Source of the DNA: a virus
Length of the DNA: 64,000 nt
Direction: 5' to 3' (one strand)
IMG/VR virus record: IMGVR_UViG_3300002307_000034
Coordinates: 40,951-104,950 of that record
Made by a program: the position numbers and the translations under genes
Shown: positions 11,501 to 58,369 of the stretch, piece after piece
Layout of the letters: each line of letters opens with the position of its first letter
Position numbering within the stretch: position 1 is the first letter of the stretch
Notes under the pieces: model-generated
What the model saw: the letters and a program-made list of their open reading frames with translations, nothing else
What the model was told of the DNA's origin: nothing
The model's database searches: none

Positions 11501-14500
11501 TTTTCAGTTACGCCTTGTTGTCTTAATTCTTCATAATAATTTGCTCTTGCCTGTACACCAATTTTTGTGTATTCTGCATATTGCAAGAAGTTTTTTGTAA
11601 TTCCTTGAAGTTTATCTTTATCTTCTAATGACCAAGTTAAAATTTCAGTAAGAACTTTGTTTTGAGTAATTAATTCTTTGCCTGTTGCTGCTAAGTCTTT
11701 TGTTACTTTTCCTTCAAGGGCTGCATATTCGGCTTGTATTTTAGCAATTTGTTGCTCTTCATTAGCCATTCCTTTTGTTGCAGCAAGTTCTTTTTCTTTT
11801 GCTGATTGTAATGCTTTTAAGTATACATCTTTATTTCCCGCACCAGTTTGTCCAACCATCATGTTTGCAAGCTGATTTGGAACTTGTGCCATACCAGCCC
11901 ACAGCATTGGATTAAATGAACCTGATGGTCCACGAACAACTTTTGGAAGATTTACAAGGTGTGCTCTTGAAGCGTTATAAAAATCTGGATTTGTTATTCC
12001 TGCATCACGAGCAGCTTCGGCAATTGCATTTTGTTCTCTACGCATAGATTCAAGCTCATATGGTCTATTTCCTAATGATCTATCAAATGGAACTCTTGCA
12101 CCAAGAGAGGATGCACCTCCGCCACGACTTGAAAGACCTACTGTATAAAGTTGAGTTTTTTCAAATCCTGGTAAACCAAGTGCTGCTACCTGATCTCTTA
12201 CTGATTGAAGAGATGTTTTTAATACTTTTCCTTCTTTTACAAAAGACTCAAGATATGATACAACTGCTGTTTTAATATCATCAGTCATTGCTGTATCTTC
12301 TGCAAACATTTGTTGCAATCTAGATACTTCTGTAGATCTTCTAAAACTAAATTCTGTTAATCCAACTACTCCACCAGCGTATCCGCCTAGTGTTCCGTTA
12401 TTCATTGCATTTAATACTGATCCATATTTTTTAGTTGCATTTGCAGTTATTACAGATTCTCCTGGAGCAAGCATTGCGGGAATAGAATCTTTTGTTCCGG
12501 AGCCTGGTAATCCAACTACTCCAGATGCAAATCCTGGAAGTCTTACTTGTACTCCTTTTCCTCCGCCAATTCCCATAGCTTCTCTTTGTGCTACGGCCAA
12601 TGCTTCAAATTGCGTGGTTAATTCTGTAATTGATTTACTTAAAATATCAAATGCTTTTGCATTACTTGTAATGGATTCTGGCATAAGATCCATTTGATTT
12701 CTTGCAGCAATAATTCCAGTATCAAGATTTTCATAGAAATTACGCATATTATGAATGCCAGCCATAAACTTATTTTGAGTAGGAAGAGATTCATCCATCC
12801 CTTGCCTAAACATTCTAATATAATTAGCACCCTTTAATAAGTTACCTGTTAAGTTTGCAAATAAACCAATTAACATTAATATTGGTCCAATTACAATCAT
12901 TCCAACTAATCCGCCACCAAATACTTTTCCTAATATACCAGCTATAGGCCCAAGCATGTGACCAATTTTTTCAAATGATTTAATTATTTTATCTAATGCT
13001 CCAGCTAATCCGCTGAATGAATTTAAAAATGTTTGTCCTATAGGAATTAAATCTGCTTTTATTGTTTCTGTCATTCTCTTAAATCTACCACTTGCAGATT
13101 CAGTTTGAGTTTTTAATTCTTGTGCTGCTAACTTTGCAAGATCTTGTGAAGAAGCTCCCATTAATTGAAACACTGTTTGGGTTTGGCTTCCAGCTTTTCC
13201 TAAATTATCAATAAGTGCTTGAATTCTTGCTTGTTGGAACTTTCCAAATAATTTTTCAATCAGTTGAGCTTTTACAAGTGGATCTAATTTTTGCATAGAT
13301 ACTTGTAATGCTTCAATCATTTTTACTGGATTTCCTCCAGTTGTTGATGCTATATTTTTTACACTAATTCCATATTGTTTAAAAGCATCTTGTGCTGCTT
13401 TAGTTGGATTGATTAATGAAGCAATAGCAGATTTAATTGCGTTTGCAGCTTGAGCTGCTGGCACACCTGCTTCTTTCATTGCAACCATCATTGCTGCTGT
13501 ATCTTTAAACGATCCACCTAATTGTGCAACAATTGGTCCTACTCTTGGAATTGCATCTACTAAATCTTGTAAGCTTGTTGATGTTTGGTTTTCAACTGCG
13601 TTTAAGAAATCAACTGCTTGAGTCAATCCTTGTGTATTTAATTTATAAACATTTTGCAATGAAACGGTAGCTTTCATTGCTTGTGCATGGTCTAATTCTC
13701 CGAGTGTTGCAAGCCTTAAAGCTTCTCTTGTTGCATTTATTAAACCTGTTCCTGTTTGTCCTGTTGCAGCTAAATCTGCTGCCATTGCAGCTGTTTCTTG
13801 TACAGAAATGCCAAAACTTCTTGCAAGTTCTGTTCCAAGTGCTGTTACATCTTTTCTTACTCCAGCTAAAACTTCTTTTGTTGGTTGCTGTAAACCAGTT
13901 CCATAAACTTTAGCTAATCTTGTTAATTCTTGGTCAACTTGTAAAAATGTTTTAGAGGCTGTTATTCCAAACATAGCCATTGGCATAGTCAAACCAACAG
14001 TTAATTGGCGTCCCATCCATTGTGTATTTTTACCAAAATTGATCATCTTCATAGCACCATCATTAAGTGCTGTGTTTAATGCTTTTTGATAAAATATAGC
14101 TTTTTCTTCAGCAGTAACTACACCATTGATATCTGTTACTAATTTTGCATATCCTGGTCGAAGTGGATCTGCTACTGCAATTGATCTATTTAATCTAGCT
14201 TGTGATGTAGCTAGTGCGTCTAATTCTTTAGAAGTACCTTTTGCACTATCCCGCCAAATTTTATAATAATTATTTAAACTTAATTGTCCTGACGCAAGTT
14301 GTTTTCCAAACTTAGTCACACTGTCTGTCATAGCTACATGCTGAATTGTAAATGCACGAGTAGACAAAACCGCACTATCAAAAGCAGATTGTGCTTGCTT
14401 GATAGATGCGGTTGCTTGAGGAGTAAAGGGTCCGCCAACTGACATCTTTTGCATAGATGCCATTGCTTCTTTTAATTTTGCAACTTCTGCATAAACTTGT

Positions 14501-47458: not shown

Positions 47459-47543
47459 TGTGACCCAAATCACAAAGATTTTTTGCAAATTGTCTCAAAT
47501 GTCCGTTTTGCGACTTGATTTTGTCAGTGTACTAGTGTAGTAT
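47459..47543 (+). promoter_or_regulatory. Composite promoter cassette 1 (CRP-type site, -35, PafBC-type -26/-10)
   Basis: TGTGACCCAAATCACA 47459; TTGATT 47515; TGTCAG-N10-TAGTAT 47522..47543. Confidence 0.75.
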
Positions 47544-47599
47544 TTATACTATAAGAGTTAATAAAGGTTATTAGCACTTCTTAAAGAAAGGTTATCCAA

Positions 47600-47743
47600 A
47601 TGATAACACTAAACTATACTTCTCTAGATTCTGACAATTCCGCCCGTTCTTTTGTGGGGTACTTCCATACAGAGAAAGCGGTCAATGACTACCTTGACCT
47701 AGTCTCAATAGATGAGACAATCCTCACAGTCAGCGTGATATAA
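47600..47743 (+). CDS. 47-aa hypothetical early protein
   Basis: GAAAGG SD; hand-translated MITLNYTSLDSD... Confidence 0.6.
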   Translation: MITLNYTSLDSDNSARSFVGYFHTEKAVNDYLDLVSIDETILTVSVI

Positions 47744-47809
47744 ATCACAAAACCTGACTGGTCAGATACGGCGTGTCGCATTGACTTTCGCCAAATAGTG
47801 TGATAGTAT
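47702..47809 (+). promoter_or_regulatory. Composite promoter cassette 2
   Basis: GTCTCA-N5-TGAGAC 47702; CGTGA-N6-TCACA 47734; GGCGTGTCG 47770; TTGACT-17-TAGTAT. Confidence 0.75.
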
Positions 47810-47865
47810 TCCACTATAAAATTAAATAAGAATAAATAAGAAAGAGTCTAGAAAGGACTACTATA

Positions 47866-48084
47866 ATGAATAACTACTATAATGAAATCCGCAAGGACAT
47901 CGCTAAAGACTTTGGTCTAGAGGCTGGTGGCTATGCTCCACTTCCTGCCCCTGCCTTGTCTATCGTTCAGGCTATGCGCCTTAATGCTAAGTACCCTAGC
48001 GAGGCGTTATCTACACGCCCTAGCGATAAGGCTATACTAATCGCTAAGCGATACGCTAGCCTAAAGAAAGTCTGGTCTAACTAA
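47866..48084 (+). CDS. Hypothetical early protein
   Basis: GAAAGGA SD downstream of promoter. Confidence 0.65.
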   Translation: MNNYYNEIRKDIAKDFGLEAGGYAPLPAPALSIVQAMRLNAKYPSEALSTRPSDKAILIAKRYASLKKVWSN

Positions 48085-48169
48085 TGACTATAAATAGCCT
48101 AACACTAATACAACTAGGTCTAATGTCGTACCTAGTTGCTAAACTAATAACAACTAAGAAAGAGGACTA

Positions 48170-48370
48170 ATGAAAACTAAGGTTATCACTACCGCCCTAC
48201 TAATAACGCTAGTACCTGCCACCGCACAGGCTAGCACTCACCACCACCGCACACCTAGAACTTATTCGGTGTATAATACAAATGTGTATAGAGGACAGAT
48301 GACTAAGATGAAATCTGCTCTCGGTATCCACTACCATACATACACACCTAAGCACCACAAGAAATACTAA
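48170..48370 (+). CDS. Small secreted basic His-rich protein
   Basis: Signal peptide ending AQA; GAGGA SD. Confidence 0.55.
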   Translation: MKTKVITTALLITLVPATAQASTHHHRTPRTYSVYNTNVYRGQMTKMKSALGIHYHTYTPKHHKKY

Positions 48371-48383
48371 GAAAGGAAAACTG

Positions 48384-48560
48384 ATGACTATGACTTATGT
48401 ACCTACTTGGGAGCGTGTCTATAATCCTTGGGACACAGAACCCGATTTCTATGATTTATCACAAATTGAAGAAGAAGAAAACGAAAAACAAAAAGATGAA
48501 ATGTCTATCGAAGAAATTGCCGAAGAAGAACTAGAATTAGAAGAGGATTTTGACCTATGA
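48384..48560 (+). CDS. 58-aa highly acidic protein
   Basis: Hand-translated; GAAAGGA SD; ends IEEIAEEELELEEDFDL. Confidence 0.6.
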   Translation: MTMTYVPTWERVYNPWDTEPDFYDLSQIEEEENEKQKDEMSIEEIAEEELELEEDFDL

Positions 48561-48724
48561 TGAGCCGTAAAGACTATGTAGAAACTGCACGAATTCTAAA
48601 TAAATATAAATCAGTAATAGATGAAAAAGATTTTTTAGATTTAGCAGATGATTTTTCTTTTATGTTTGAAAAAGACAATCCTAATTTTATTGCAGATAAA
48701 TTTTTAGAGGCTTGCAATAAATAA
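48557..48724 (+). CDS. 55-aa protein, RKDY...DNPNF family paralog 1
   Basis: Aligns with 49377..49571. Confidence 0.75.
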   Translation: MMSRKDYVETARILNKYKSVIDEKDFLDLADDFSFMFEKDNPNFIADKFLEACNK

Positions 48725-48738
48725 AAAAATCGAAGATC

Positions 48739-48992
48739 GTTGAAGCTTTGACTATAATGGTTGAAGCTTCAACTATTTTTTTGGGCGGGGTTTCAATCCC
48801 CGCCCGCACTCGGGCGTGTCGCATGTGGTATAAGTCACAAAGTACACGCTCCATATATTGAGACTACTTGCAAGTATACTAGACAGTAGCGATTTTATGT
48901 GTTATACTTCCAGTATTGAAAAATTAAATAAGAAAAAAGTTAGTTAATCAACGGCGTGTCGCCTTGATTTTCCGCAGAAAGTCTGCTAAACT
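48739..48992 (+). promoter_or_regulatory. Composite promoter cassette 3
   Basis: GTTGA-N4-TCAAC boxes, 24-bp GC repeat, CRP-type site 48824, GTCTCA box, TACTTGCAAGTA, two -35/-10 pairs, GGCGTGTCG 48953. Confidence 0.75.
48798..48821 (+). repeat. CCCCGCCCGCACTCGGGCGTGTCG repeat, copy 1
   Basis: Identical at 49715; one-base insertion at 51814. Confidence 0.95.
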
Positions 48993-49025
48993 AACGATAG
49001 TTAAAAATAAAGAAAGGTGGTCAAA

Positions 49026-49220
49026 ATGACTACACTAACAATAAACGAAGTATGCGTTAAGCATACACCTCATAAAGAATCTATTTCCGTGATTGCTCAC
49101 GATTTCGATTCTGCCGATTATTTCACTTTTTGTGAAAATTGTGAACAAAACATAGAAAGTTTTTCTTTCTATGATGATGACAGAGGTACTGTCTATACTA
49201 AGTGGACACTTAGTAAGTAA
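49026..49220 (+). CDS. Small Zn-ribbon protein
   Basis: C..H and CENC; GAAAGGTGG SD. Confidence 0.6.
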   Translation: MTTLTINEVCVKHTPHKESISVIAHDFDSADYFTFCENCEQNIESFSFYDDDRGTVYTKWTLSK

Positions 49221-49376
49221 AGAAAGGATAAACTTAAATGATAGCAATTAAATGTGATGAATGCGGTGGTGCAGGATTTATTTTTTTTGGTAATGAAAAT
49301 GATTTTGATGTAATGAAATGCGATTGCATTTCTGATGATGTTGATTTTACTGATGGAATTATGGGGGCTTAAATAA

Positions 49377-49571
49377 ATGATGACTAGAAAAGACTATGTG
49401 AGTGTAGCCAATATTCTAAATGATATTGCTAAGCCTAATATGGATATGGTTCCTTTTGAGGATTTAGTAGCAGAGTTTGCAGATATGTTTTTTGCAGATA
49501 ATCCTAATTTCTCTCCCACCCGTTTTGAAATGGCTTGCTATGGAAATGATGAGGGTGGTGATGTTAAATGA
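49377..49571 (+). CDS. RKDY...DNPNF family paralog 2
   Basis: Aligns with 48557..48724. Confidence 0.75.
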   Translation: MMTRKDYVSVANILNDIAKPNMDMVPFEDLVAEFADMFFADNPNFSPTRFEMACYGNDEGGDVK

Positions 49572-49678
49572 AAAACGAAGATCCATTTGGATTTGCAAAT
49601 GCAATTCAGCTTGATCATCTTAATTTTGAACAATTAAAAGAATTAGAAAAGATTTTAGATAAAATTAAATAGCTGATA

Positions 49679-49833
49679 AGTATAATTATGCAAATCACTG
49701 CATAATTATGCAAGCCCCGCCCGCACTCGGGCGTGTCGCATTACGGTGTGAGATTTGTCACACAGGTTGAGCGTCTCAAAATGTGGAATTACTTACGAGT
49801 AGGTAGAATAATGTCAGTGGTATCGTGTATAAT
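49679..49833 (+). promoter_or_regulatory. Composite promoter cassette 4
   Basis: Tandem ARG-type boxes, 24-bp repeat, CRP-type site 49747, GTCTCA box, TACTTACGAGTA, TGTCAG-N10-TATAAT. Confidence 0.8.
49715..49738 (+). repeat. 24-bp GC repeat, copy 2
   Basis: Exact match to 48798..48821. Confidence 0.95.
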
Positions 49834-49869
49834 TCCTACTATTAACAAGAAAGAAAGAAGGTAGCAAAT

Positions 49870-50091
49870 ATGCTAATCTCAACAGCCCTAGAAGGCAAAT
49901 ATGTAAAGTCCTCAAAAGGACAAGGAATAATCCAGTACGCAGATTTCCGCAAGGATATGCGACACTCTACGCCCGAAGGCTATCTTGCTTATGCTTGCAA
50001 AGTACGCCCACACTGGAACGGCGAAGGATTTCCTAAGCCTGATTTCTGGACAACAATTTATGTCGGACTTGATTCAGAATTGGTGGACTAA
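49870..50091 (+). CDS. Hypothetical early protein
   Basis: GAAGGT SD downstream of cassette 4. Confidence 0.65.
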   Translation: MLISTALEGKYVKSSKGQGIIQYADFRKDMRHSTPEGYLAYACKVRPHWNGEGFPKPDFWTTIYVGLDSELVD

Positions 50092-50195
50092 ATGGGTAAT
50101 ATCGCAGATGAATTATGGAATAATTATAAAGAGGCTACTTGGAACACAATGTCAGTGCCACCTGCTACAATATGGGAAACAAAGGAGAACGACTA

Positions 50196-50405
50196 ATGGA
50201 ATATAGTTATGTAATTACTACACACTATGACGGCGATTATTTTTCGTCGCATAGATTTTCAGATGCACTAACTGCTGTAAATGCGTTTAATAAATGCGTA
50301 GATGTAGGAGATGCAAAAGAATATGCAACTTATAATCTATTAGAGCCAAATGGCAAAATGCATACACTTAATTTTTATAGAAATGGGGCAGTAAATGGGA
50401 AGTAA
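50196..50405 (+). CDS. Hypothetical early protein
   Basis: AAGGAG SD before MEYSYV. Confidence 0.65.
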   Translation: MEYSYVITTHYDGDYFSSHRFSDALTAVNAFNKCVDVGDAKEYATYNLLEPNGKMHTLNFYRNGAVNGK

Positions 50406-50694
50406 TCTAGCAACAGAATTAGCTGGAAGTGAATTAGGTTTATCTATGGAAGATAGTATTGGTATGCACTTGCGTGTTAATCACTACCCTCCCGTCCCAA
50501 TTTCTATGGTACAGCCTTGCATAGATGCTATTGACGCATATTGGGAAGAAGACTTAAATCGTGAGATCGAATTACCTGAAGGCGTATCTTGGCGTGGCAA
50601 TACCTATGCACCCGCATATGCTATTATTGAGAATCATCACTTGGAAGCCTGGTGCCAGGAAGATGAATACTTAGATGAAGAAGAATTGGTGTGA
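50395..50694 (+). CDS. Hypothetical acidic protein
   Basis: HLRVNHYPPVP...HHLEAW; coupled to upstream gene. Confidence 0.7.
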   Translation: MGSNLATELAGSELGLSMEDSIGMHLRVNHYPPVPISMVQPCIDAIDAYWEEDLNREIELPEGVSWRGNTYAPAYAIIENHHLEAWCQEDEYLDEEELV

Positions 50695-50794
50695 TGTAAC
50701 TCACACCAGACACGCCCATAGTGGATTGGACAAAGGTTGTTCCGCTATGGTAAAATACCACCTATAAACAACAACAAAAGAAAAGAGAAATAAA

Positions 50795-50959
50795 ATGACA
50801 GTATCAAACAAGACATACGCAGTAGGCGACCTATTCACCACACAGAAGTCAAAGGTGACAGGCACTATCAAGGAAATCAACCCTATCAACGCAAGCACGA
50901 CCCGTGTGCTGCTTGATGTCGAAGGCAAAGACCGCTGGACAACAGTATCGTTTGCGTAA
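50795..50959 (+). CDS. 54-aa SH3-like beta protein, GDLFTT family paralog 1
   Basis: Hand-translated; aligns with 51529..51699; the ORF track shows only the antisense shadow. Confidence 0.75.
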   Translation: MTVSNKTYAVGDLFTTQKSKVTGTIKEINPINASTTRVLLDVEGKDRWTTVSFA

Positions 50960-51041
50960 TTAAATAATAATTGGCAGGAGGGTGTCAGACCCTCCTGCTA
51001 TACTATCTCTCATAACAAACCCGAATAGAAAGTAGAAATAA

Positions 51042-51458
51042 ATGTCAAGAGCAATCACAGTAAAGGTGGCAACACCAAAGGTAATCAAGGCTTTGGAAAC
51101 AAAGTTGGCAACAATTAAAACTGATTATGCTAATCAGGAAAAGAACGAAGCAAAGTATCAGAAGGACTTTGAGAAGTATCGCAAGGCTCTTGCTGATTAT
51201 GCTATTGCTAACATCAAGAAAGCAACTAACATCAGAACTAATCATCGCTCTTGGAATAATAGCCTTAACATTGACTTTGATGTTGATACACAAGGTGCTA
51301 ATTTTCCTGCTGAGCCACAGCGTGAGTTTGAGCAACTACACGCACACACATACAAGGAAATTGTAGAGGACATCTCAAATGCTCTCACAATTCTAAAAAT
51401 GACAGACGAGGAAACAGTAAATGCTTCTACTATGAAGCAAATCGCTAAGTATCTCTAA
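51042..51458 (+). CDS. Hypothetical coiled-coil early protein
   Basis: Preceded by TGTCAG-N10-TATACT promoter. Confidence 0.7.
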   Translation: MSRAITVKVATPKVIKALETKLATIKTDYANQEKNEAKYQKDFEKYRKALADYAIANIKKATNIRTNHRSWNNSLNIDFDVDTQGANFPAEPQREFEQLHAHTYKEIVEDISNALTILKMTDEETVNASTMKQIAKYL

Positions 51459-51528
51459 ATAATACAAGACCTGAGCATAGTCTTAAAACTGCTCACACTA
51501 TAACCCGAAATAGAAAAGGAAAAAAATA

Positions 51529-51699
51529 ATGACTTTGCAAGGATACACATATCAAATTGGTGATTTATTCACAACATCTAAAACTGGAGTAACTGGTCGC
51601 ATCATTAAGTTTGCACCAATCTCAAATAAAGTAACTCGTGTTCAATTGCAATTAGCAAATGGCTCAAAGCGATTTGCTATGGTTAAAACTTCTATCTAA
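51529..51699 (+). CDS. 56-aa GDLFTT family paralog 2
   Basis: Hand-translated; AAGGA SD. Confidence 0.75.
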   Translation: MTLQGYTYQIGDLFTTSKTGVTGRIIKFAPISNKVTRVQLQLANGSKRFAMVKTSI

Positions 51700-51792
51700 T
51701 AAAATAATTAAAGTGGTCGTGAGTGATAACAGGTAAGTGTTATAGTAGCCTATAACCACCACTTTATTTTTTGGATCTGCAGCTGCTAATAA

Positions 51793-51931
51793 TAGTTGAA
51801 CATTCAACCAAAACCCCGCCCCGCACTCGGGCGTGTCGTTACGAATGTGATTTTAATCACTTGAATTTTGTCTCAAATAATAAGATTAAGGGCGTGTCGA
51901 GTGGACAAATGTCAGTGCGTTTTGGTATACT
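51793..51931 (+). promoter_or_regulatory. Composite promoter cassette 5
   Basis: GTTGAACATTCAAC, 25-bp repeat copy 3 (51814..51838), CRP-type 51846, GTCTCA box, GGCGTGTCG 51891, TGGACA, TGTCAG-N10-TATACT. Confidence 0.8.
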
Positions 51932-51962
51932 AGCGACAGTTAAACAGAAAGAAGGTCTATTC

Positions 51963-52079
51963 ATGAACCTAGATGAATTTAAGACACATGTCCTTGCAAC
52001 ACGCAAGGCTTCACAGGCAGAAGCGATGTCAGTCCTATCTGCTACAATACAACCTCAACCCGAAAAGAAAGAAGAATAA
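51963..52079 (+). CDS. 38-aa protein containing an internal promoter
   Basis: GAAGG SD; MNLDEFKTHV... Confidence 0.55.
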   Translation: MNLDEFKTHVLATRKASQAEAMSVLSATIQPQPEKKEE

Positions 52080-52084
52080 ATAAA

Positions 52085-52564
52085 ATGGAAAATCTAACAA
52101 TGTCTCAGGCTCGTGTAATTATTGACGAAGCCGTTGCAAATTTTGATGGAAACCTATCAGATGAAACAATTTCTCAAATTGTTTTTGCTATGAATGAAAA
52201 TTTACAGATTCGTGATTACACCCTAGGCTTACCTATTAACTATGGAGTCGAGCATATGGTACAATTCTTTACTTATATCTCAGACCGAATTCCATCGGAT
52301 GAGGCATATGCGGTTAATACCGTATTAGCAATGTTTGAGTATGAATTAGGCGAAACAGATATTGCTTCCCACCTCATTCAATCTGTAAATGGGACTAGAG
52401 TCTACTCTCTTGCCCTTCTTGCGACTCGTGTTATAAATGCAGGATGGCCATCAGATTCTTTCGTTGCAATGCGTAACGAATTGGCACCCAAAGTTATTGC
52501 AAATATCGAAGAATTAGGAGATGAGGTAATTGGTCAAAAATTGGATGAAAATGAACTTGTCTAA
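52085..52564 (+). CDS. DUF4192-like protein
   Basis: QIRD and YSLALLA..VINAGWP motifs. Confidence 0.5.
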   Translation: MENLTMSQARVIIDEAVANFDGNLSDETISQIVFAMNENLQIRDYTLGLPINYGVEHMVQFFTYISDRIPSDEAYAVNTVLAMFEYELGETDIASHLIQSVNGTRVYSLALLATRVINAGWPSDSFVAMRNELAPKVIANIEELGDEVIGQKLDENELV

Positions 52565-52667
52565 AGTTCAACGCATACAAGAATTGCGACGCAGTAATGC
52601 GTCGCAACCTCTACGCAATAAAAAGAAATACACCCGAAAAAACAAATATAAGAAAGTAGAAGAATAA

Positions 52668-52931
52668 ATGTCAAATCTCTCAACCGCCCTTGCACTACAA
52701 GAAGGAATTTCTGAAATTGTCTTCTCTGATGAAGTAATGATTTATGCAGCTGAAATTGCAAAAAATGCAGATTTTAATCCTGAAGTTTTAGAATTAATAA
52801 TGAAATACGCTTCTACACTATCCGCAGGCGTTGCAACAAAAGTTGTAGAAATTGTAATGCCTAAATCTGAATTTAGTTCTATGATGAAAGAACTTAAAGA
52901 AATGCAAGAGATTGGAGATTCAATTGAATAA
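52668..52931 (+). CDS. Hypothetical protein
   Basis: ORF track, co-directional array. Confidence 0.6.
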   Translation: MSNLSTALALQEGISEIVFSDEVMIYAAEIAKNADFNPEVLELIMKYASTLSAGVATKVVEIVMPKSEFSSMMKELKEMQEIGDSIE

Positions 52932-53205
52932 GTCAACTGGACAAAACATTCACACAAAATGGATCCAAGATGCATTGGGTGTGAGCACTGCAGTAGCACT
53001 ACGTGTGCAAAAAGAAATTAATCAAAACTATGATTTAGATTGGTCTGAAGCAGATATGGACGAAATCGAATTTACTGCAATGTTGGCGTTTGAAAATATG
53101 AATGTAACACATAGCTTTTAGTTGCGACGGGTGAGAGAGACGGTGGGTCCAAGGGTTGGGCCCACTGTTACCACTTGACAAATGCAAATTTTTGGGGCGG
53201 GGCTT

Positions 53206-53417
53206 TGTGATGCAAATCACATGTGATTAAGATCACATGCATAAGGTTTGACCAATCACCCTTACGAATGATAGAATCATCCAATGGAATCAATAATGCT
53301 CGTGCCCGTTTTGTTCTTTTTGTCACCATTTATGATGGCTTTTCTAGCGTATGTGTTTTATGTCACAATTAAAATACGTTGATAGGCTTGACGAATGTCA
53401 GTCCAGTCTGATATACT
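53206..53417 (+). promoter_or_regulatory. Composite promoter cassette 6
   Basis: Back-to-back CRP-type sites 53206 and 53222, third at 53352; TTGACG-NN-TGTCAG-N10-TATACT. Confidence 0.75.
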
Positions 53418-53448
53418 TACGGCTTAACCAAAATGAAAGAAGGTCAAA

Positions 53449-54483
53449 ATGAACCAAAATACAGTCCATCAATCTGAAATCGAATCCGGCGAAGCGTCTT
53501 TTGCTATTGTCGAATCTCGTTCCAATCCTGCTTGGCATAGTTTTGCTAACAAGGTTTTCGATAAGGATATCGAAACTCCTACAGTTACAGAAATTATGGA
53601 TGCTGCTAAATTATCTAATTGGAATGTTCGACTTGAGCCTATTGCCGAATTAGTTCCTGACTACAATATGATTAGCGATTCTTATCTTGTTGTCCGTGAT
53701 AATCCATATGGTAAAGGTAAGGATGTTCTTGCAACAGTAGGCTCACGCTATAAAGAAGTGCAGAATGAAGATTTATTTGCATTTGCAGAAAATCTACACG
53801 ACTCCAATCCTGACGTTAAAATTGATTCAGCAGGTTCATTTAAGAGTGGACGTGTTGTTTATGGTTCTTGGTCTGTACCTAACCAATTAGTTCTTGACCC
53901 AAAGGGTGCTAACGATGTAACGAATCTATATTTGATTTGCTACACCTCACACGATGGGTCTGTGTCTGTGCAGGTTGCTTTAACGCCTGTCCGTGTTAAA
54001 TGTCAAAATACACTTAATTTTGCTATGAAACGTGCTAAGCAATCTTTCAAGTTGCGTCATACTCAAACAGTAGACGGAAAAATTGCACAGGCTCGTGAGG
54101 CTTTAGGTTTATCTATTGCATATATGGATGAATTCTCTAAGCAAGCGAATGAATTATTTACTCGTGAGGTAACAGCGTTAGATTTTAGCAAAATCATCAC
54201 AACACTTTATCCTAAGCCTGAATCAGATAAAAAAGGTTCGCTTAAAAAGTGGGAATCAAAAGTTGTTTTGCTTGACGAGTTGTATCACAATTCACCTACC
54301 AATGAAAATATCAAAGGTACTGCTTGGGGCGTAGTTAATGCATTAACCGAACGCCTTGATTATTATCGCACAGCCCGCAAGGGTAATGGTGAATCGCTTG
54401 TTTATTCTGCAAGTGGTTTTGACCCTGTAATAAATGCAGAAAAAAATAAAATTGTTAAAGCGGTTTTGCAACTAACTGCTTAA
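53449..54483 (+). CDS. DUF932 (TIGR03299-like) protein
   Basis: PAWH, VGSRYKEVQN, TSHDGS, TPVRVKCQNT, RHT, GTAWGVVNALTE. Confidence 0.9.
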   Translation: MNQNTVHQSEIESGEASFAIVESRSNPAWHSFANKVFDKDIETPTVTEIMDAAKLSNWNVRLEPIAELVPDYNMISDSYLVVRDNPYGKGKDVLATVGSRYKEVQNEDLFAFAENLHDSNPDVKIDSAGSFKSGRVVYGSWSVPNQLVLDPKGANDVTNLYLICYTSHDGSVSVQVALTPVRVKCQNTLNFAMKRAKQSFKLRHTQTVDGKIAQAREALGLSIAYMDEFSKQANELFTREVTALDFSKIITTLYPKPESDKKGSLKKWESKVVLLDELYHNSPTNENIKGTAWGVVNALTERLDYYRTARKGNGESLVYSASGFDPVINAEKNKIVKAVLQLTA

Positions 54484-54489
54484 TAAATC

Positions 54490-54521
54490 GGGGGCGAGAA
54501 ATCGCCCCCACATTTTTTTTT
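54490..54521 (+). terminator. Intrinsic terminator
   Basis: GGGGGCGA-GAAA-TCGCCCCC plus T-run. Confidence 0.9.
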
Positions 54522-54537
54522 AGATCAAGAGCTGCAA

Positions 54538-54691
54538 TTTATAAATATGCAAAGCGTTGCATAATTATGCATCCTCGGGGTATGTGATGTAAAACACAAT
54601 TACGATATGTCCGAATTATCACTTGAATACCAATTACGAAGATCAAATTACGAATTACGATTGGACATATGTCAGTGGTATATGTTAGAAT
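54538..54691 (+). promoter_or_regulatory. Composite promoter cassette 7
   Basis: Tandem ARG-type boxes, CRP-type 54583, ATTACGA repeats, TGGACA-NN-TGTCAG-N10-TAGAAT. Confidence 0.75.
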
Positions 54692-54717
54692 ACCCTATAT
54701 TCAACGAAAGGAAATAT

Positions 54718-55449
54718 ATGCCAAATTGGGTCTATAATGGTTTAACAATTGAAGGTAAGCCAGAATCTATAACTAAATTAAAAGAACAAATGAATACTCC
54801 CTTTGTGGATTATATTGAAGCCAATGGTGATTTAGCCTTTGGTGTTAAAGAGACTAAGTATTCTAATCCTGTATTTTCATTCCGTAATATCATTGCTCCC
54901 ACCGACCTTGAAGCATACAAGGCACAGCCTGTTCGTTCTGAACTTGATTGGAATGACCCTAATTGGTGGGCTGATATTCAACGTCTATCTGAAACAGATA
55001 ATTCTTGGTATAACTGGAACATGCGTAATTGGGGAACAAAATGGGATGTGGCTGTATCTGAGGATAATAAGTATCCTAATACATATATGCAAGAATCAGA
55101 TAATGGTGAGAATAAAGTAGTTTATTATTCATTTGAAACTGCTTGGTCTGCCCCGTTTCCTGCAATGGAAAAGTTATCTGAACAATATCCTGATTTGTTA
55201 TTTACATTATCATATGAAGAAGAAACAGGTTGGGGTGGTGAAGCAGAATTCTTGAGAAGTAAAATGATTAGTCATAGTGAATATGAAAACAAATGCAGAG
55301 ACTGTGATGCAACCGACACTCTAGACTATTGCGAAGAGTGTGAAAATGAGATATGCTCTGCTTGTGGATTTGGAAACGAGGAACTTGACGAAAACAAATG
55401 TCAGTCCCATAGTGTACAATTAGCCTCTACAACAAACGAAGGGAAATAA
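54718..55449 (+). CDS. DUF1281/YubB ferredoxin-like-fold protein with C-terminal Cys motifs
   Basis: MPNWVYN, WYNWNMRNWGTKWD, FETAWSAP; start re-placed. Confidence 0.8.
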   Translation: MPNWVYNGLTIEGKPESITKLKEQMNTPFVDYIEANGDLAFGVKETKYSNPVFSFRNIIAPTDLEAYKAQPVRSELDWNDPNWWADIQRLSETDNSWYNWNMRNWGTKWDVAVSEDNKYPNTYMQESDNGENKVVYYSFETAWSAPFPAMEKLSEQYPDLLFTLSYEEETGWGGEAEFLRSKMISHSEYENKCRDCDATDTLDYCEECENEICSACGFGNEELDENKCQSHSVQLASTTNEGK

Positions 55450-55451
55450 AA

Positions 55452-55865
55452 ATGGAAGCAGTACAAGAGACACTAGCAATACAGTATTTGCAAGAACTTG
55501 AATTAAAATATGGTAATGAGATTACTGAACTTAAAAATCAACTGGCTTCACACCAGAATTGTGATTATTGGAAATCAGAAAATGGTCGCATTGGGCAACA
55601 GTTAATTTCTATAGTTGATGAGTACTATGAAGATGGAAAAGATGCAGAAGTAATTGTTCGTGAATTGTGTGAAATCATTGACTACCAGCCAACATTTACG
55701 GTAGAATTTACAGCAACAGTTACCTTTAATGGTCGTATTGAAGTTCCTGCTGATGAGAAGGAAGACTTTGATTTGACTGACGCACTTGGTGATGTATATG
55801 TAGATATCAATAATGGCAACGTAGTTATTGATTCATATGACCTAGAGAATGTAGAGGAATGCTAA
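55452..55865 (+). CDS. Hypothetical acidic protein
   Basis: ORF track; SD and internal upstream promoter. Confidence 0.65.
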   Translation: MEAVQETLAIQYLQELELKYGNEITELKNQLASHQNCDYWKSENGRIGQQLISIVDEYYEDGKDAEVIVRELCEIIDYQPTFTVEFTATVTFNGRIEVPADEKEDFDLTDALGDVYVDINNGNVVIDSYDLENVEEC

Positions 55866-56047
55866 TGGCTAGTACATATTTTATTACTGGAACGATGTAT
55901 GAAGTTATCTATCCAGATGAGATGGAAGATACTATTGACCTAAGTGACATCTATGACAAGTATTTCAATGATGAAGGCTCTTTACCAGATGATGTTGAAG
56001 TAATTGAATCGGAAGTAACACATTTCTGGGAAGGAGATATAGTCTAA
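55859..56047 (+). CDS. Small acidic protein
   Basis: ORF track, coupled. Confidence 0.55.
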   Translation: MLMASTYFITGTMYEVIYPDEMEDTIDLSDIYDKYFNDEGSLPDDVEVIESEVTHFWEGDIV

Positions 56048-56268
56048 TGGCTATTATTACACTTGATGCAGGTTCCCGCCAAACGGCGGGAGCCATAATG
56101 GTTGAAGCTTGGAAATTTGGTGTAGAGGTAGAAATGCTACATGGTAATCAAGTAGAACTATGTTCGGCTAATGAAGAGAAATTAGATCTTATTGCAAATA
56201 AATATAAAGGCGTAAAAGTATTGCATAAAGAACTATTAAAGGAAGTTGGCATATATGAGTCTAACTGA
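56047..56268 (+). CDS. Hypothetical protein
   Basis: AAGGAG SD. Confidence 0.6.
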   Translation: MAIITLDAGSRQTAGAIMVEAWKFGVEVEMLHGNQVELCSANEEKLDLIANKYKGVKVLHKELLKEVGIYESN

Positions 56269-56575
56269 TCTAATTAATCTAATATACACAGATATAGATG
56301 GTCATATGAATGAATGTGATTGTAATCTATGTATCACTATGGATATCGTGCAGGAATATATACAGCGTTCCCACCTTGACAAGGTGGATGCTGGTATGGT
56401 AGGATAGCACCTATGCAAAATGTATGGATTGAACCTGTAATACTATTAGACAAAACTTTTTATTTTGTCTATGACTATAATGCTGATATAACTGCTGATG
56501 ATTTAGTAGTTTGCAATACATTGCTTGACGCAATTGATTACTGTAAATCTAATAACCTAGAATATGAGATTGTAA

Positions 56576-56881
56576 ATGATTGAATATATTGAAGAGGCTT
56601 ATCAACTAGTAACTGGATATACTTCTAAGACCCTCCGCCCTGGTTTAATGGATTTGCTAACATTTGATATGTTGGTTGATATGAATATGCAGGACGATGA
56701 GTATGTTTGGTTTAATACACCTGATGAGGTTATGCAACACATTGTTGACAATAACGTTACCTTTACGCTACAATTCGGTTTAGATGATTTATGGCATGCA
56801 ATAAGAGAATATCTAATAGAAAATGATTTCGTCAAAAGTATTGACGATGTAAAAGAAGAAGAGGAAAATAATGACAACTAA
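56576..56881 (+). CDS. Hypothetical acidic protein
   Basis: ORF track. Confidence 0.6.
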   Translation: MIEYIEEAYQLVTGYTSKTLRPGLMDLLTFDMLVDMNMQDDEYVWFNTPDEVMQHIVDNNVTFTLQFGLDDLWHAIREYLIENDFVKSIDDVKEEEENNDN

Positions 56882-57047
56882 GACAAATGCTCGTGAGTTT
56901 CTTGTATCAAAGGGATTCAAGCCAGGTGCTCGTGGCCGTTTCTCTGCTGAAATGATTCAGGTCCTTAAGGATTCAGGCCTTGAATTTAATCGTCCTGTAA
57001 AGGACCCTAAGCCTCGTGCAAAGAACGAGTCTGTAACTTTAAAGTAA
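56871..57047 (+). CDS. Lsr2-like DNA-binding domain protein (58 aa)
   Basis: Hand-translated; AREFLVSKGFKPGARGRFSAE resembles the Lsr2 RGR AT-hook domain; GAGGA SD. Confidence 0.7.
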   Translation: MTTKTNAREFLVSKGFKPGARGRFSAEMIQVLKDSGLEFNRPVKDPKPRAKNESVTLK

Positions 57048-57235
57048 ACCCTTTCACTACAAAGGTTCCGCTGCGTGAGTCCCGTACATTGTACGGGCTT
57101 GCGATAGATGGATCCAAGCTCGGTTATGTGATGTGTACGGATTGTGAACAGCATATGACATTTTGCGAGTGTGAGGGTGGCGTGAAGGCTCCGTCTCAAA
57201 TAGTAAGAGCCCTAGACAAACTGGTAAGACTCTGA
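57038..57235 (+). CDS. Cys-rich extension probably reached by -1 frameshift from the Lsr2-like gene
   Basis: Open -1 frame with CTDC..H..C.C, no good own start; T TTA AAG heptamer directly before the stop. Confidence 0.55.
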   Translation, partial: FKVNPFTTKVPLRESRTLYGLAIDGSKLGYVMCTDCEQHMTFCECEGGVKAPSQIVRALDKLVRL

Positions 57236-57262
57236 TATAATTCAGGGTTCGGAAAGGACAAT

Positions 57263-57562
57263 ATGGAAATCAACGAAAAGTATGTTAAACAAACTCTAGA
57301 TGCTATGGCTGACCATAGAATGACTACAGGTGTAGTTGCTCAACAGATTGCCCAATTCAAACCAAGGGAGCAAATTAGATTCTTTAAATTAGCAATTAAC
57401 TATATAGAGATTCTTGCACAGCACGGAGAGCGTGGCTACACTATGTTAGGTTTAGAACACATTGTTAAGGCTTGCGAGGAACTCTTATTTGTGGTAGACT
57501 TGCACTTCCCAAAAGATGAAACACAGATGACCCTACCCGGAATGGAGTACGTAGCAGTATGA
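57263..57562 (+). CDS. Hypothetical protein
   Basis: TAGACA-17-TATAAT promoter and GAAAGGA SD. Confidence 0.7.
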   Translation: MEINEKYVKQTLDAMADHRMTTGVVAQQIAQFKPREQIRFFKLAINYIEILAQHGERGYTMLGLEHIVKACEELLFVVDLHFPKDETQMTLPGMEYVAV

Positions 57563-57680
57563 CAACTTATTCAATCGCTTTAGAAGTTGATGAAGAATGG
57601 TTGCGAGTTATTCAAGACCTTACGTCTGAGGTCTATGACGGTGAAGTATGTAATTGGAAAAAGATAGAGGAGATTAAATA

Positions 57681-58058
57681 ATGGGAGCAAGAGTAAATTT
57701 CGTATTCAAGACAGAGTTAGATAAGCCTAACATTGTTCTATATTCTCATTGGGGCGAGGATACTTGGCAAGAAGATTTGGCTATGGCTATCGAAAAGGCA
57801 AGCAATCGTCTAAAAATGGGTGATGCAGTTTATGCCCTACGTATAATGATTGACCAATTAACTAAGTCTGGGCGGGACGAGGAAACAGGATTCGGTATCT
57901 ATCTAGCAGATGAAGATATGATGTATATGGACACTACAGTAGAAATTGATATGACTACTCAAATGGTTAATGATTCAGGCAATTGGCATTCATTTGAATC
58001 ATTTAGAGAATATCATCTAGAGGAAATGAAAGAGTACCACAAGTTTGACAATATTTAA
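57681..58058 (+). CDS. Hypothetical protein (MGAR...LYSHWG type)
   Basis: GAGGAG SD. Confidence 0.7.
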   Translation: MGARVNFVFKTELDKPNIVLYSHWGEDTWQEDLAMAIEKASNRLKMGDAVYALRIMIDQLTKSGRDEETGFGIYLADEDMMYMDTTVEIDMTTQMVNDSGNWHSFESFREYHLEEMKEYHKFDNI

Positions 58059-58080
58059 TATACAGTAGTATAATATATAT

Positions 58081-58165
58081 AAAGATATAGGGCGTTCAGG
58101 CTATTCTGCCAAGTCCAATTAATAGGACCCACACGAATTCGGGATCGTGTGGGTCCTTTCTTATT
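58081..58165 (+). ncRNA. Candidate small RNA
   Basis: TTGACA-18-TATAAT (58045..58074), about 85 nt without a start codon, then a 13-bp terminator stem. Confidence 0.45.
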
Positions 58166-58167
58166 TC
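58124..58167 (+). terminator. Intrinsic terminator closing the early array
   Basis: AGGACCCACACGA-N8-TCGTGTGGGTCCT plus TTCTTATTT. Confidence 0.85.
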
Positions 58168-58369
58168 ATAAAACATTTTGTAATATAAATCACATTGCCC
58201 AAAGCCCAAGACAGGGGTATTCGATCCACGGGTATTACGAAGGGGATCAAAATTCGCTGGAACTTTTAAAAAACGGGATTACGAAAGAACTCTTTTTTCC
58301 CCTAGTACATATATGACCAATATATCCTATATAAACACATATAAAATGTACCATAAAATATGTACACAT

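Follow-up and report, generated by a model that had tools for sequence, protein, structure and literature searches.

The terminal 64 kb (hereafter the window) of IMG/VR virus record IMGVR_UViG_3300002307_000034, which is 104,950 bp long and rated 97% complete, carry a dense array of TGTGA-N6-TCACA palindromes along a plus-strand arm of small genes. Their number, sequence and placement indicate that the palindromes are a real, functional operator array, and make it near certain that a protein cooperating with RNA polymerase binds them. For a host regulator of the CRP/GlxR type, modulating the promoters of the small-gene arm together with RNA polymerase, we see about an even chance; it is the single most likely binder, and a phage-encoded regulator is its main rival.

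Expected counts were taken from 100 dinucleotide-preserving shuffles of the window. The perfect palindrome is present five times (0.15 expected), and 13 sites are found when up to one mismatch is allowed (2.8 expected); no shuffle reached either number. Twelve of the 13 lie within 47459-58194. Over the whole genome, all five perfect copies and seven of the nine one-mismatch copies fall between 47.4 and 58.2 kb of the window, with two one-mismatch copies outside this region and no further perfect palindrome anywhere in the 104,950 bp. The one-mismatch copy at 13145 is inside the tape-measure gene and is probably a chance match.

A first-pass annotation had listed eleven such sites and proposed a one-mismatch scan with shuffles as the check, which bore out both the excess and the confinement. 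All eleven were recovered, namely the five perfect palindromes at 47459, 49747, 50690, 53206 and 53222 (the last two abut) and the six one-mismatch sites at 47734, 48824, 51846, 53352, 54583 and 58179, and two one-mismatch copies that had been overlooked, 47713 and 13145, were added. Almost all sites were described as intergenic or at gene ends and upstream of promoters. In the arm, two of them (47734 and 50690) overlap stop codons, one (47713) is in a gene and the remainder are intergenic; ten precede a promoter, and none is evident past 58179.

The genes of the phage are those of a siphovirus, with a tape measure of 2005 amino acids (aa), a portal, a protease and a capsid protein. Nearly all are on the minus strand, the exception being the plus-strand small-gene arm at ~44.0-59.6 kb. 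The phage is not high-GC, because its G+C (GC) content is ~34%. Transcription units of the arm are modules that open with a GC hairpin resembling a terminator (often CCCCGCCCGCACTCGGGCGTGTCGCA), followed by the palindrome and then by the promoter. The promoters are either TGTCAGTG-N8-TAnnnT or of the sigma-70 type with a -35 and an extended -10 element. About half of the partner promoters share the 22-nt architecture of PafBC-dependent promoters, the TGTCAG form matching that of the PafBC consensus tGTCgg(N10)tA(N3)T (PMC8635444).

When spacing is counted from the start of the site up to a point 16 bp ahead of the -10 hexamer (d_eq in Table 1), the ten sites give 63, 54, 63, 65, 45, 64, 50, 34, 44 and 87 bp. 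The sigma-70-type promoters in the window show the same spacing classes when measured from the -10, and because spacing is thus independent of promoter type, the reference point is taken to be the -10 element, i.e., RNA polymerase. The sites stand 34-111 bp upstream of the -10 frame, and nearly every promoter of the arm has one ahead of it at a distance of whole helical turns.

The arrangement recurs across a family of related phages. Relatives of the DUF932 protein encoded in the arm were found at 47-86% identity in 19 IMG/VR loci. With the exception of one unrelated high-GC contig, these have perfect palindromes adjoining plus-strand TGTCAG promoters, 3-8 copies in most loci and 8 at the maximum. 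In five related genomes, three of them rated ≥99% complete, every perfect site is in an arm of 8-12 kb, and a reversed-pattern control gave 0. The distances between site and promoter are quantised at 34, 44, 54, 64-65, 74-76, 83-87, 95-97 and 109-113 bp, with a period of ~10.3 bp and a vector strength of 0.63 (61 de-replicated clusters) that none of 5000 random spacing sets matched. A collection-wide IMG/VR scan for the palindrome followed by TGTCAG-N10-TAnnnT at any gap of 20-50 bp matched at least 120 contigs, and the 188 unique modules among the matches listed have spacings of 43-45 (n = 54), 49-50 (n = 22), 53-57 (n = 68) and 63-66 bp (n = 43) only. A site is present 30-115 bp upstream of 72 of 149 unique TGTCAG promoters, whereas the corresponding downstream interval has one in 1 case and the interval 200-285 bp upstream in 13.

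Many of these modules share descent; the spacing classes are still present where the intervening sequence is <75% identical. In orthologous intergenic regions the positions of the sites differ and the phase is kept, which argues for selection on geometry and not for inheritance of a fixed cassette. Abutting pairs, 16 bp centre to centre, occur as 7 unique cases across the family, and a second cluster of pairs lies at 23-28 bp. Nearly all motif-selected contigs share some genes with this phage, and so supply no evidence from an independent lineage. The early arm of Cursive, a Streptomyces BE-type (Stanwilliamsviridae) relative, has no palindromes and one TGTCRG-N10-TAnnnT match, so the box wiring is not ancestral to the wider lineage. 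We found no published description of phage wiring of this kind in the literature.

The 133 unique sites of the family have the extended consensus aTGTGA-T-n-T-A/T-a-A-TCACA, with T6 in 72, A11 in 91 and a centre dinucleotide of TA (41), TT (38) or AA (29). As the first-pass annotation proposed, the motif equals the CRP/GlxR consensus; the symmetric T6/A11 and the A/T-rich centre agree with it as well. Published work assigns the reading of the G bases in TGTGA to a RETV-type helix (PMC10187061). Half-sites are fixed while the spacers vary, with no compensatory changes or covariation and no T run after the sites, and the palindrome is therefore more readily understood as a protein site than as an RNA stem. 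An intrinsic terminator or structured RNA was rejected on the lack of covariation and of a U tract and on the 5-bp stem, which would make a poor terminator. Rex prefers A6/T11, and a Rex operator (TTGTGAA-N4-TTCACAA) was rejected with A6 in 8 and T11 in 5 of the 133 sites. Operators of a CI/Cro-type repressor are also a poor description, the sites being 34-111 bp upstream and the arm having no repressor-like domain.

The host is an actinobacterium. The WhiB family is represented in all five phages and, among 14 control genomes, in Corynebacterium alone; the virion protease and the DUF932 protein match Streptomyces BE-type phages at 39-49% identity; and the phage DNA occurs in freshwater metagenomes, one of them probably its source (no RNA run is among those listed). 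Because of these three observations we regard the phage as an actinophage. Further leads to the host lineage were followed and dropped. Among cellular sequences, the dUTPase is closest to that of a Rhodoluna metagenome-assembled genome (59% identity), and as a marker this gene cannot separate acI-like genomes from Rhodoluna. PafBC (a tandem WYL pair) is present in both lineages, and a 'host-like surface protein' (G000:21923-22993) had no match in 151 actinobacterial genomes. The class-level tallies for CRP, dUTPase and the surface protein include the unpublished genomes G037, G045, G054, G060, G062, G066 and G073, and no individual claim relies on them. Lineage names other than Rhodoluna for the candidate hosts are inferred assignments, acI/Planktophila-like being based solely on genome size and GC content.

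CRP-type proteins were detected in 147 of the 151 genomes of the class; within the acI-like family, 36 of 41 genomes have a CRP orthologue. Each complete genome in the range of 1.38-1.50 Mb and 47-49% GC encodes a single CRP, of 227 aa. The CRP of acI-like plankton matches that of Mycobacterium tuberculosis with E = 6e-77, and the recognition helix GASRETVNKALADFA, of the R-E-x-x-x-K/R form expected of a CRP, is identical. In the small freshwater actinobacterial genomes the CRP has an intact-looking cyclic AMP (cAMP) pocket motif, GELSLFDPGPRTS. The five phage genomes have neither a CRP-family helix-turn-helix nor a cyclic-nucleotide-binding (cNMP) domain, in searches in which positive controls scored. 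No Pfam DNA-binding domain was detected in the 38 open reading frames (ORFs) of the arm, which gave only a weak Lsr2-like PHROG match. A host CRP/GlxR protein is thus the likeliest binder because of the exact consensus, the actinobacterial host, a near-universal CRP with an invariant helix, the absence of any CRP from the phage and the phased placement upstream of promoters.

Under this reading, a dimeric DNA-binding protein would use the palindromes as its operators and act with RNA polymerase at the arm promoters. It would sit on one helix face, upstream of the presumed start sites by roughly 54, 65, 75, 85 or 107 bp, and modulate transcription by the host polymerase at both PafBC-type (TGTCAG-N10-TAnnnT) and sigma-70-type promoters. 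We infer that it probably activates them in the manner of CRP at class I promoters, and the gene layout suggests that the small-gene arm is expressed early.

Several observations weigh against a host CRP. With a start site assumed 7 nt after the -10, the site centres would be at -64.5, -74.5 and -84.5, ~3 bp off those of Escherichia coli class I promoters, although start sites are assumed throughout and the absolute register rests on that assumption. The 49-50 bp minority class, 12% of modules among the matches listed, is half a turn off, and pairs spaced by 16 or 23-28 bp place their members on opposite helical faces, more like a phage operator array. The host signal is divided as well. In the 151-genome class sample the dUTPase matched an acI-like small genome slightly above Rhodoluna (about equally), and none of 26 Rhodoluna genomes encodes a protein with a cNMP-binding domain, in what looks like a lineage-specific loss of CRP. 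The single HTH_Crp_2 match in a Rhodoluna genome is a GntR-like protein and was rejected as a CRP.

The candidate hosts that have a CRP show little use of the motif. The perfect form is found at 1 site in five genomes, near-consensus sites are not in excess (9 and 12, compared with 9 and 16 in controls), and near-consensus copies conserved between two acI-like genomes lie inside genes. The sole intergenic perfect site in acI-like genomes is upstream of a CtaG-type gene and is anecdotal. Rhodoluna has 28 perfect palindromes versus 6 in the control; these are located inside genes and were rejected as a regulatory set. Finally, outside the arm the phage encodes, besides WhiB, a conserved protein of 171 aa that weakly matches HTH_38/HTH_17.

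The first-pass annotation went further, to cAMP-dependent control of early genes. The part concerning control stands to the extent that sites are upstream of promoters and in helical phase, as for an activator, with 'early' read from gene layout only. The cAMP input is not supported. A search for class III adenylate cyclase (PF00211) gave no match in any of the 41 acI-like family genomes or of 5 small plankton genomes, with a Corynebacterium control that scores; other classes were not searched for. This also counts against a CRP, and because of it cAMP dependence is doubtful. Should CRP be the binder, cAMP may be dispensable to it, as it largely is for the M. tuberculosis protein. The latter, CRP_Mt, binds DNA without cAMP, and at whiB1 it has tandem sites 21 bp apart, an activating one at -58.5 and a repressing one at -37.5 (PMC2844151).

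The alternative that survives best, which we consider possible if on the unlikely side, is that a phage-encoded regulator, either the 171-aa helix-turn-helix protein or a family-wide small arm protein, switches the arm promoters on or off during infection, and that the match to the CRP consensus is coincidence or mimicry. The 171-aa protein is kept in all five genomes with an invariant helix, NRH.DTIKRHLRSG, and several arm proteins with no assigned function recur throughout the family. The family-wide small proteins of the arm comprise the 54- and 56-aa pair and those of 99, 87 and 125 aa. Closely spaced sites, 9 cases at 16-17 bp and 22 at 23-28 bp, recall the operator arrays of phages, no regulatory use of the motif is visible in candidate host genomes, and one plausible host lineage, Rhodoluna, is without CRP. 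However, the sites are 34-111 bp upstream of the -10, off the core promoter, and are found ahead of the first arm promoter as well; the arm proteins lack a recognisable DNA-binding domain; and the exact CRP consensus, including T6/A11, would have to be a coincidence. Orthologues of the 171-aa protein are encoded by 127 Streptomyces BE-type phages, and the one examined has no palindromes. As an argument this is weak, because the putative recognition helix of that orthologue differs. In the 171-aa protein, an AT-hook-like motif (HIGRPRKDG) is likewise invariant and the C-terminus is strongly conserved. The AlphaFold2 model of the protein has a mean predicted local distance difference test score (pLDDT) of 40 and is unusable.

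A more elaborate suggestion, which we offer tentatively and hold to be rather doubtful, is either a two-key gate of host factors by which this abundant family of lake phages would switch on its small genes, formed by an orphan CRP, in plankton with a CRP and no recognisable adenylate cyclase, and the activator PafBC, which senses DNA damage or single-stranded DNA, with the CRP box phase-locked to the -10 of PafBC-type promoters, or a phage regulator of unknown fold that copies the specificity of CRP.

It is improbable that the sites bind host CRP mainly to soak it up, such that hundreds of top-affinity sites on replicating DNA strip the host promoters. Titration is arithmetically plausible from the site counts, with 12 near-consensus sites per arm versus ~10 chance-level, mostly intragenic ones in a candidate host of 1.4-1.5 Mb, and just one perfect site across five candidate host genomes. 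A decoy, however, needs neither strict helical phasing to the -10 nor a one-sided upstream position, and decoys could sit anywhere, yet there are none in the other 94 kb of the genome. Recognition of TGTGA-N6-TCACA in the true host by a transcription factor of a non-CRP family appears just as improbable. Rhodoluna, without CRP, is among the best matches for a phage gene, which would fit such a factor, but its perfect copies are inside genes and not regulatory, and a Rex-type preference for A6/T11 is the opposite of the T6/A11 observed. We know of no non-CRP factor with this specificity. That the palindrome has no binding role and is a hitch-hiker in a duplicated promoter cassette, or an RNA hairpin, is very improbable: the modules are indeed repeated, together with the GC hairpin and other shared boxes, but the spacing classes outlast the divergence of the intervening sequence to <75% identity, site positions turn over between relatives with the phase kept, and the half-sites are fixed without compensatory changes on a 5-bp stem that, with no U tract, is a poor terminator.

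A host CRP/GlxR protein acting with RNA polymerase, the reading we prefer, has partial counterparts among known systems. At E. coli lac-type class I promoters, CAP binds at -61.5, -71.5, -82.5 or -92.5. The phage sites share with these the 16-bp consensus with T6/A11 and the upstream location at one-turn steps. They differ in belonging to an actinobacterial system, in a phase ~3 bp off with the assumed start site, in partner promoters that are often PafBC-type without a -35, in the half-turn minority class and abutting pairs, and in that the class III cyclase search found no cAMP source in candidate hosts. Lambda OR/OL and the stoperators of cluster A mycobacteriophages are many-copy phage operators with a known phage repressor, and their positions either overlap promoters or fall inside transcription units. 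Like them, the present sites are many copies of one short operator over one phage arm, some of them paired; unlike them, they are upstream and phased, and domain searches of the arm identified no repressor.

At M. tuberculosis whiB1, the CRP has a helix identical to that of the candidate hosts, binds without cAMP and uses an upstream site with a close second site; in contrast to the perfect or near-perfect phage sites, ~12 in 11 kb, the whiB1 sites are degenerate, with 7/8 and 6/8 defined bases (PMC2844151). The GlxR regulon of Corynebacterium glutamicum has the TGTGA-N6-TCACA consensus under a global regulator that activates and represses, but it is chromosomal and comprises >200 genes (PMC10187061), whereas here the whole array is on the phage and the candidate hosts have no comparable set of sites. 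We found no description in the literature of an upstream CRP-type co-site for PafBC promoters. A Megablast search of the arm against GenBank phages gave no match.

Table 1 Candidate operator sites, predicted promoters and a candidate regulator gene (window coordinates unless a prefix is given)
Feature	Position	Strand	Remarks
Perfect palindrome TGTGACCCAAATCACA	47459..47474		Head of + strand small-gene arm; 63 bp before TGTCAG promoter at 47522
Promoter P1, TGTCAGTG-N8-TAGTAT	47522..47543	+	PafBC-type architecture
One-mismatch copy TGAGACAATCCTCACA	47713..47728		Inside 47600-47743 ORF, 21 bp from 47734 site; status doubtful
One-mismatch site CGTGATATAAATCACA	47734..47749		Overlaps stop codon of 47600-47743 ORF; d_eq 54 to -10 at 47804
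Promoter P2, TTGACT-N17-TAGTAT	47781..47809	+	Sigma-70 type
One-mismatch site TGTGGTATAAGTCACA	48824..48839		Abuts GC hairpin/GGCGTGTCGCA box; d_eq 63
Promoter P3, TAGACA-N17-TATACT	48880..48908	+	
Perfect site TGTGAGATTTGTCACA	49747..49762		Spacing 65
Promoter P4, TGTCAGTG-N8-TATAAT	49812..49833	+	
Perfect site TGTGATGTAACTCACA	50690..50705		Overlaps stop codon of 50395-50694 ORF; d_eq 45
Promoter P5, TGGACA-N18-TAAAAT	50727..50756	+	Extended -10
One-mismatch site TGTGATTTTAATCACT	51846..51861		Spacing 64
Promoter P6, TGTCAGTG-N8-TATACT	51910..51931	+	
Back-to-back perfect pair	53206..53237		16 bp centre to centre; d_eq 50 and 34 to -10 at 53272
Promoter P7, TTGACC-N18-TAGAAT	53248..53277	+	
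One-mismatch site TGTGTTTTATGTCACA	53352..53367		Upstream of DUF932 gene; spacing 44
Promoter P8, TGTCAGTC-N8-TATACT	53396..53417	+	Predicted to drive DUF932 gene (53449-54483)
One-mismatch site TGTGATGTAAAACACA	54583..54598		Spacing 87
Promoter P9, TGTCAGTG-N8-TAGAAT	54670..54691	+	
One-mismatch copy TGTAATATAAATCACA	58179..58194		After terminator-like hairpin; no promoter recognised downstream; status doubtful
171-aa helix-turn-helix protein	G000:38992-39507 (L026:10995-11507)	-	Replication module

The arm contains further repeated elements. A GGCGTGTCG box occurs six times, on the plus strand of the arm only (47770, 48813, 48953, 49730, 51830 and 51891), either within the GC hairpin just 5' of the palindrome or directly upstream of the -35, and recurs in related loci. 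A perfect 14-bp palindrome, TGCATAATTATGCA, is present twice (49699-49712 and 54558-54571), 11-34 bp upstream of a CRP-type site and with a related half-copy, TATGCAAA, alongside; it may be a second type of operator. TTACGAA is repeated in intergenic regions of the arm, at 51839, 53262, 54634, 54648, 58235 and 58279, the copies at 54634 and 54648 being 14 bp apart. TGTCAG-N10-TAnnnT also occurs without a palindrome at 50150, 52027 and 55399, each time at the end of the upstream ORF, and these matches may be internal promoters that lack a box.

Two paralogous arm proteins of 54 and 56 aa (50795-50959 and 51529-51699) share the core Y-x-[VI]-GDLFTT-x-K-[ST]-x-VTG; without a known domain, they are the best-conserved arm genes, with up to 94% identity across the family. 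On the minus strand at 63054-63744, three tandem, partly overlapping small ORFs each end in TIQAIEKEL plus one residue, and from their sequences look like a repeated gene family.

The acI-like family keeps a canonical CRP with no class III cyclase found and no visible consensus-site regulon, and it is odd that the strongest CRP-type sites in the system are on the phage. Were the binder a phage protein, it would be a regulator without a recognisable domain that shares the DNA specificity of CRP. If instead the host CRP is the binder, a very common family of lake phages would have its first promoters licensed by a global regulator of the host, and the physiological state of the most abundant freshwater bacteria would condition their infection.

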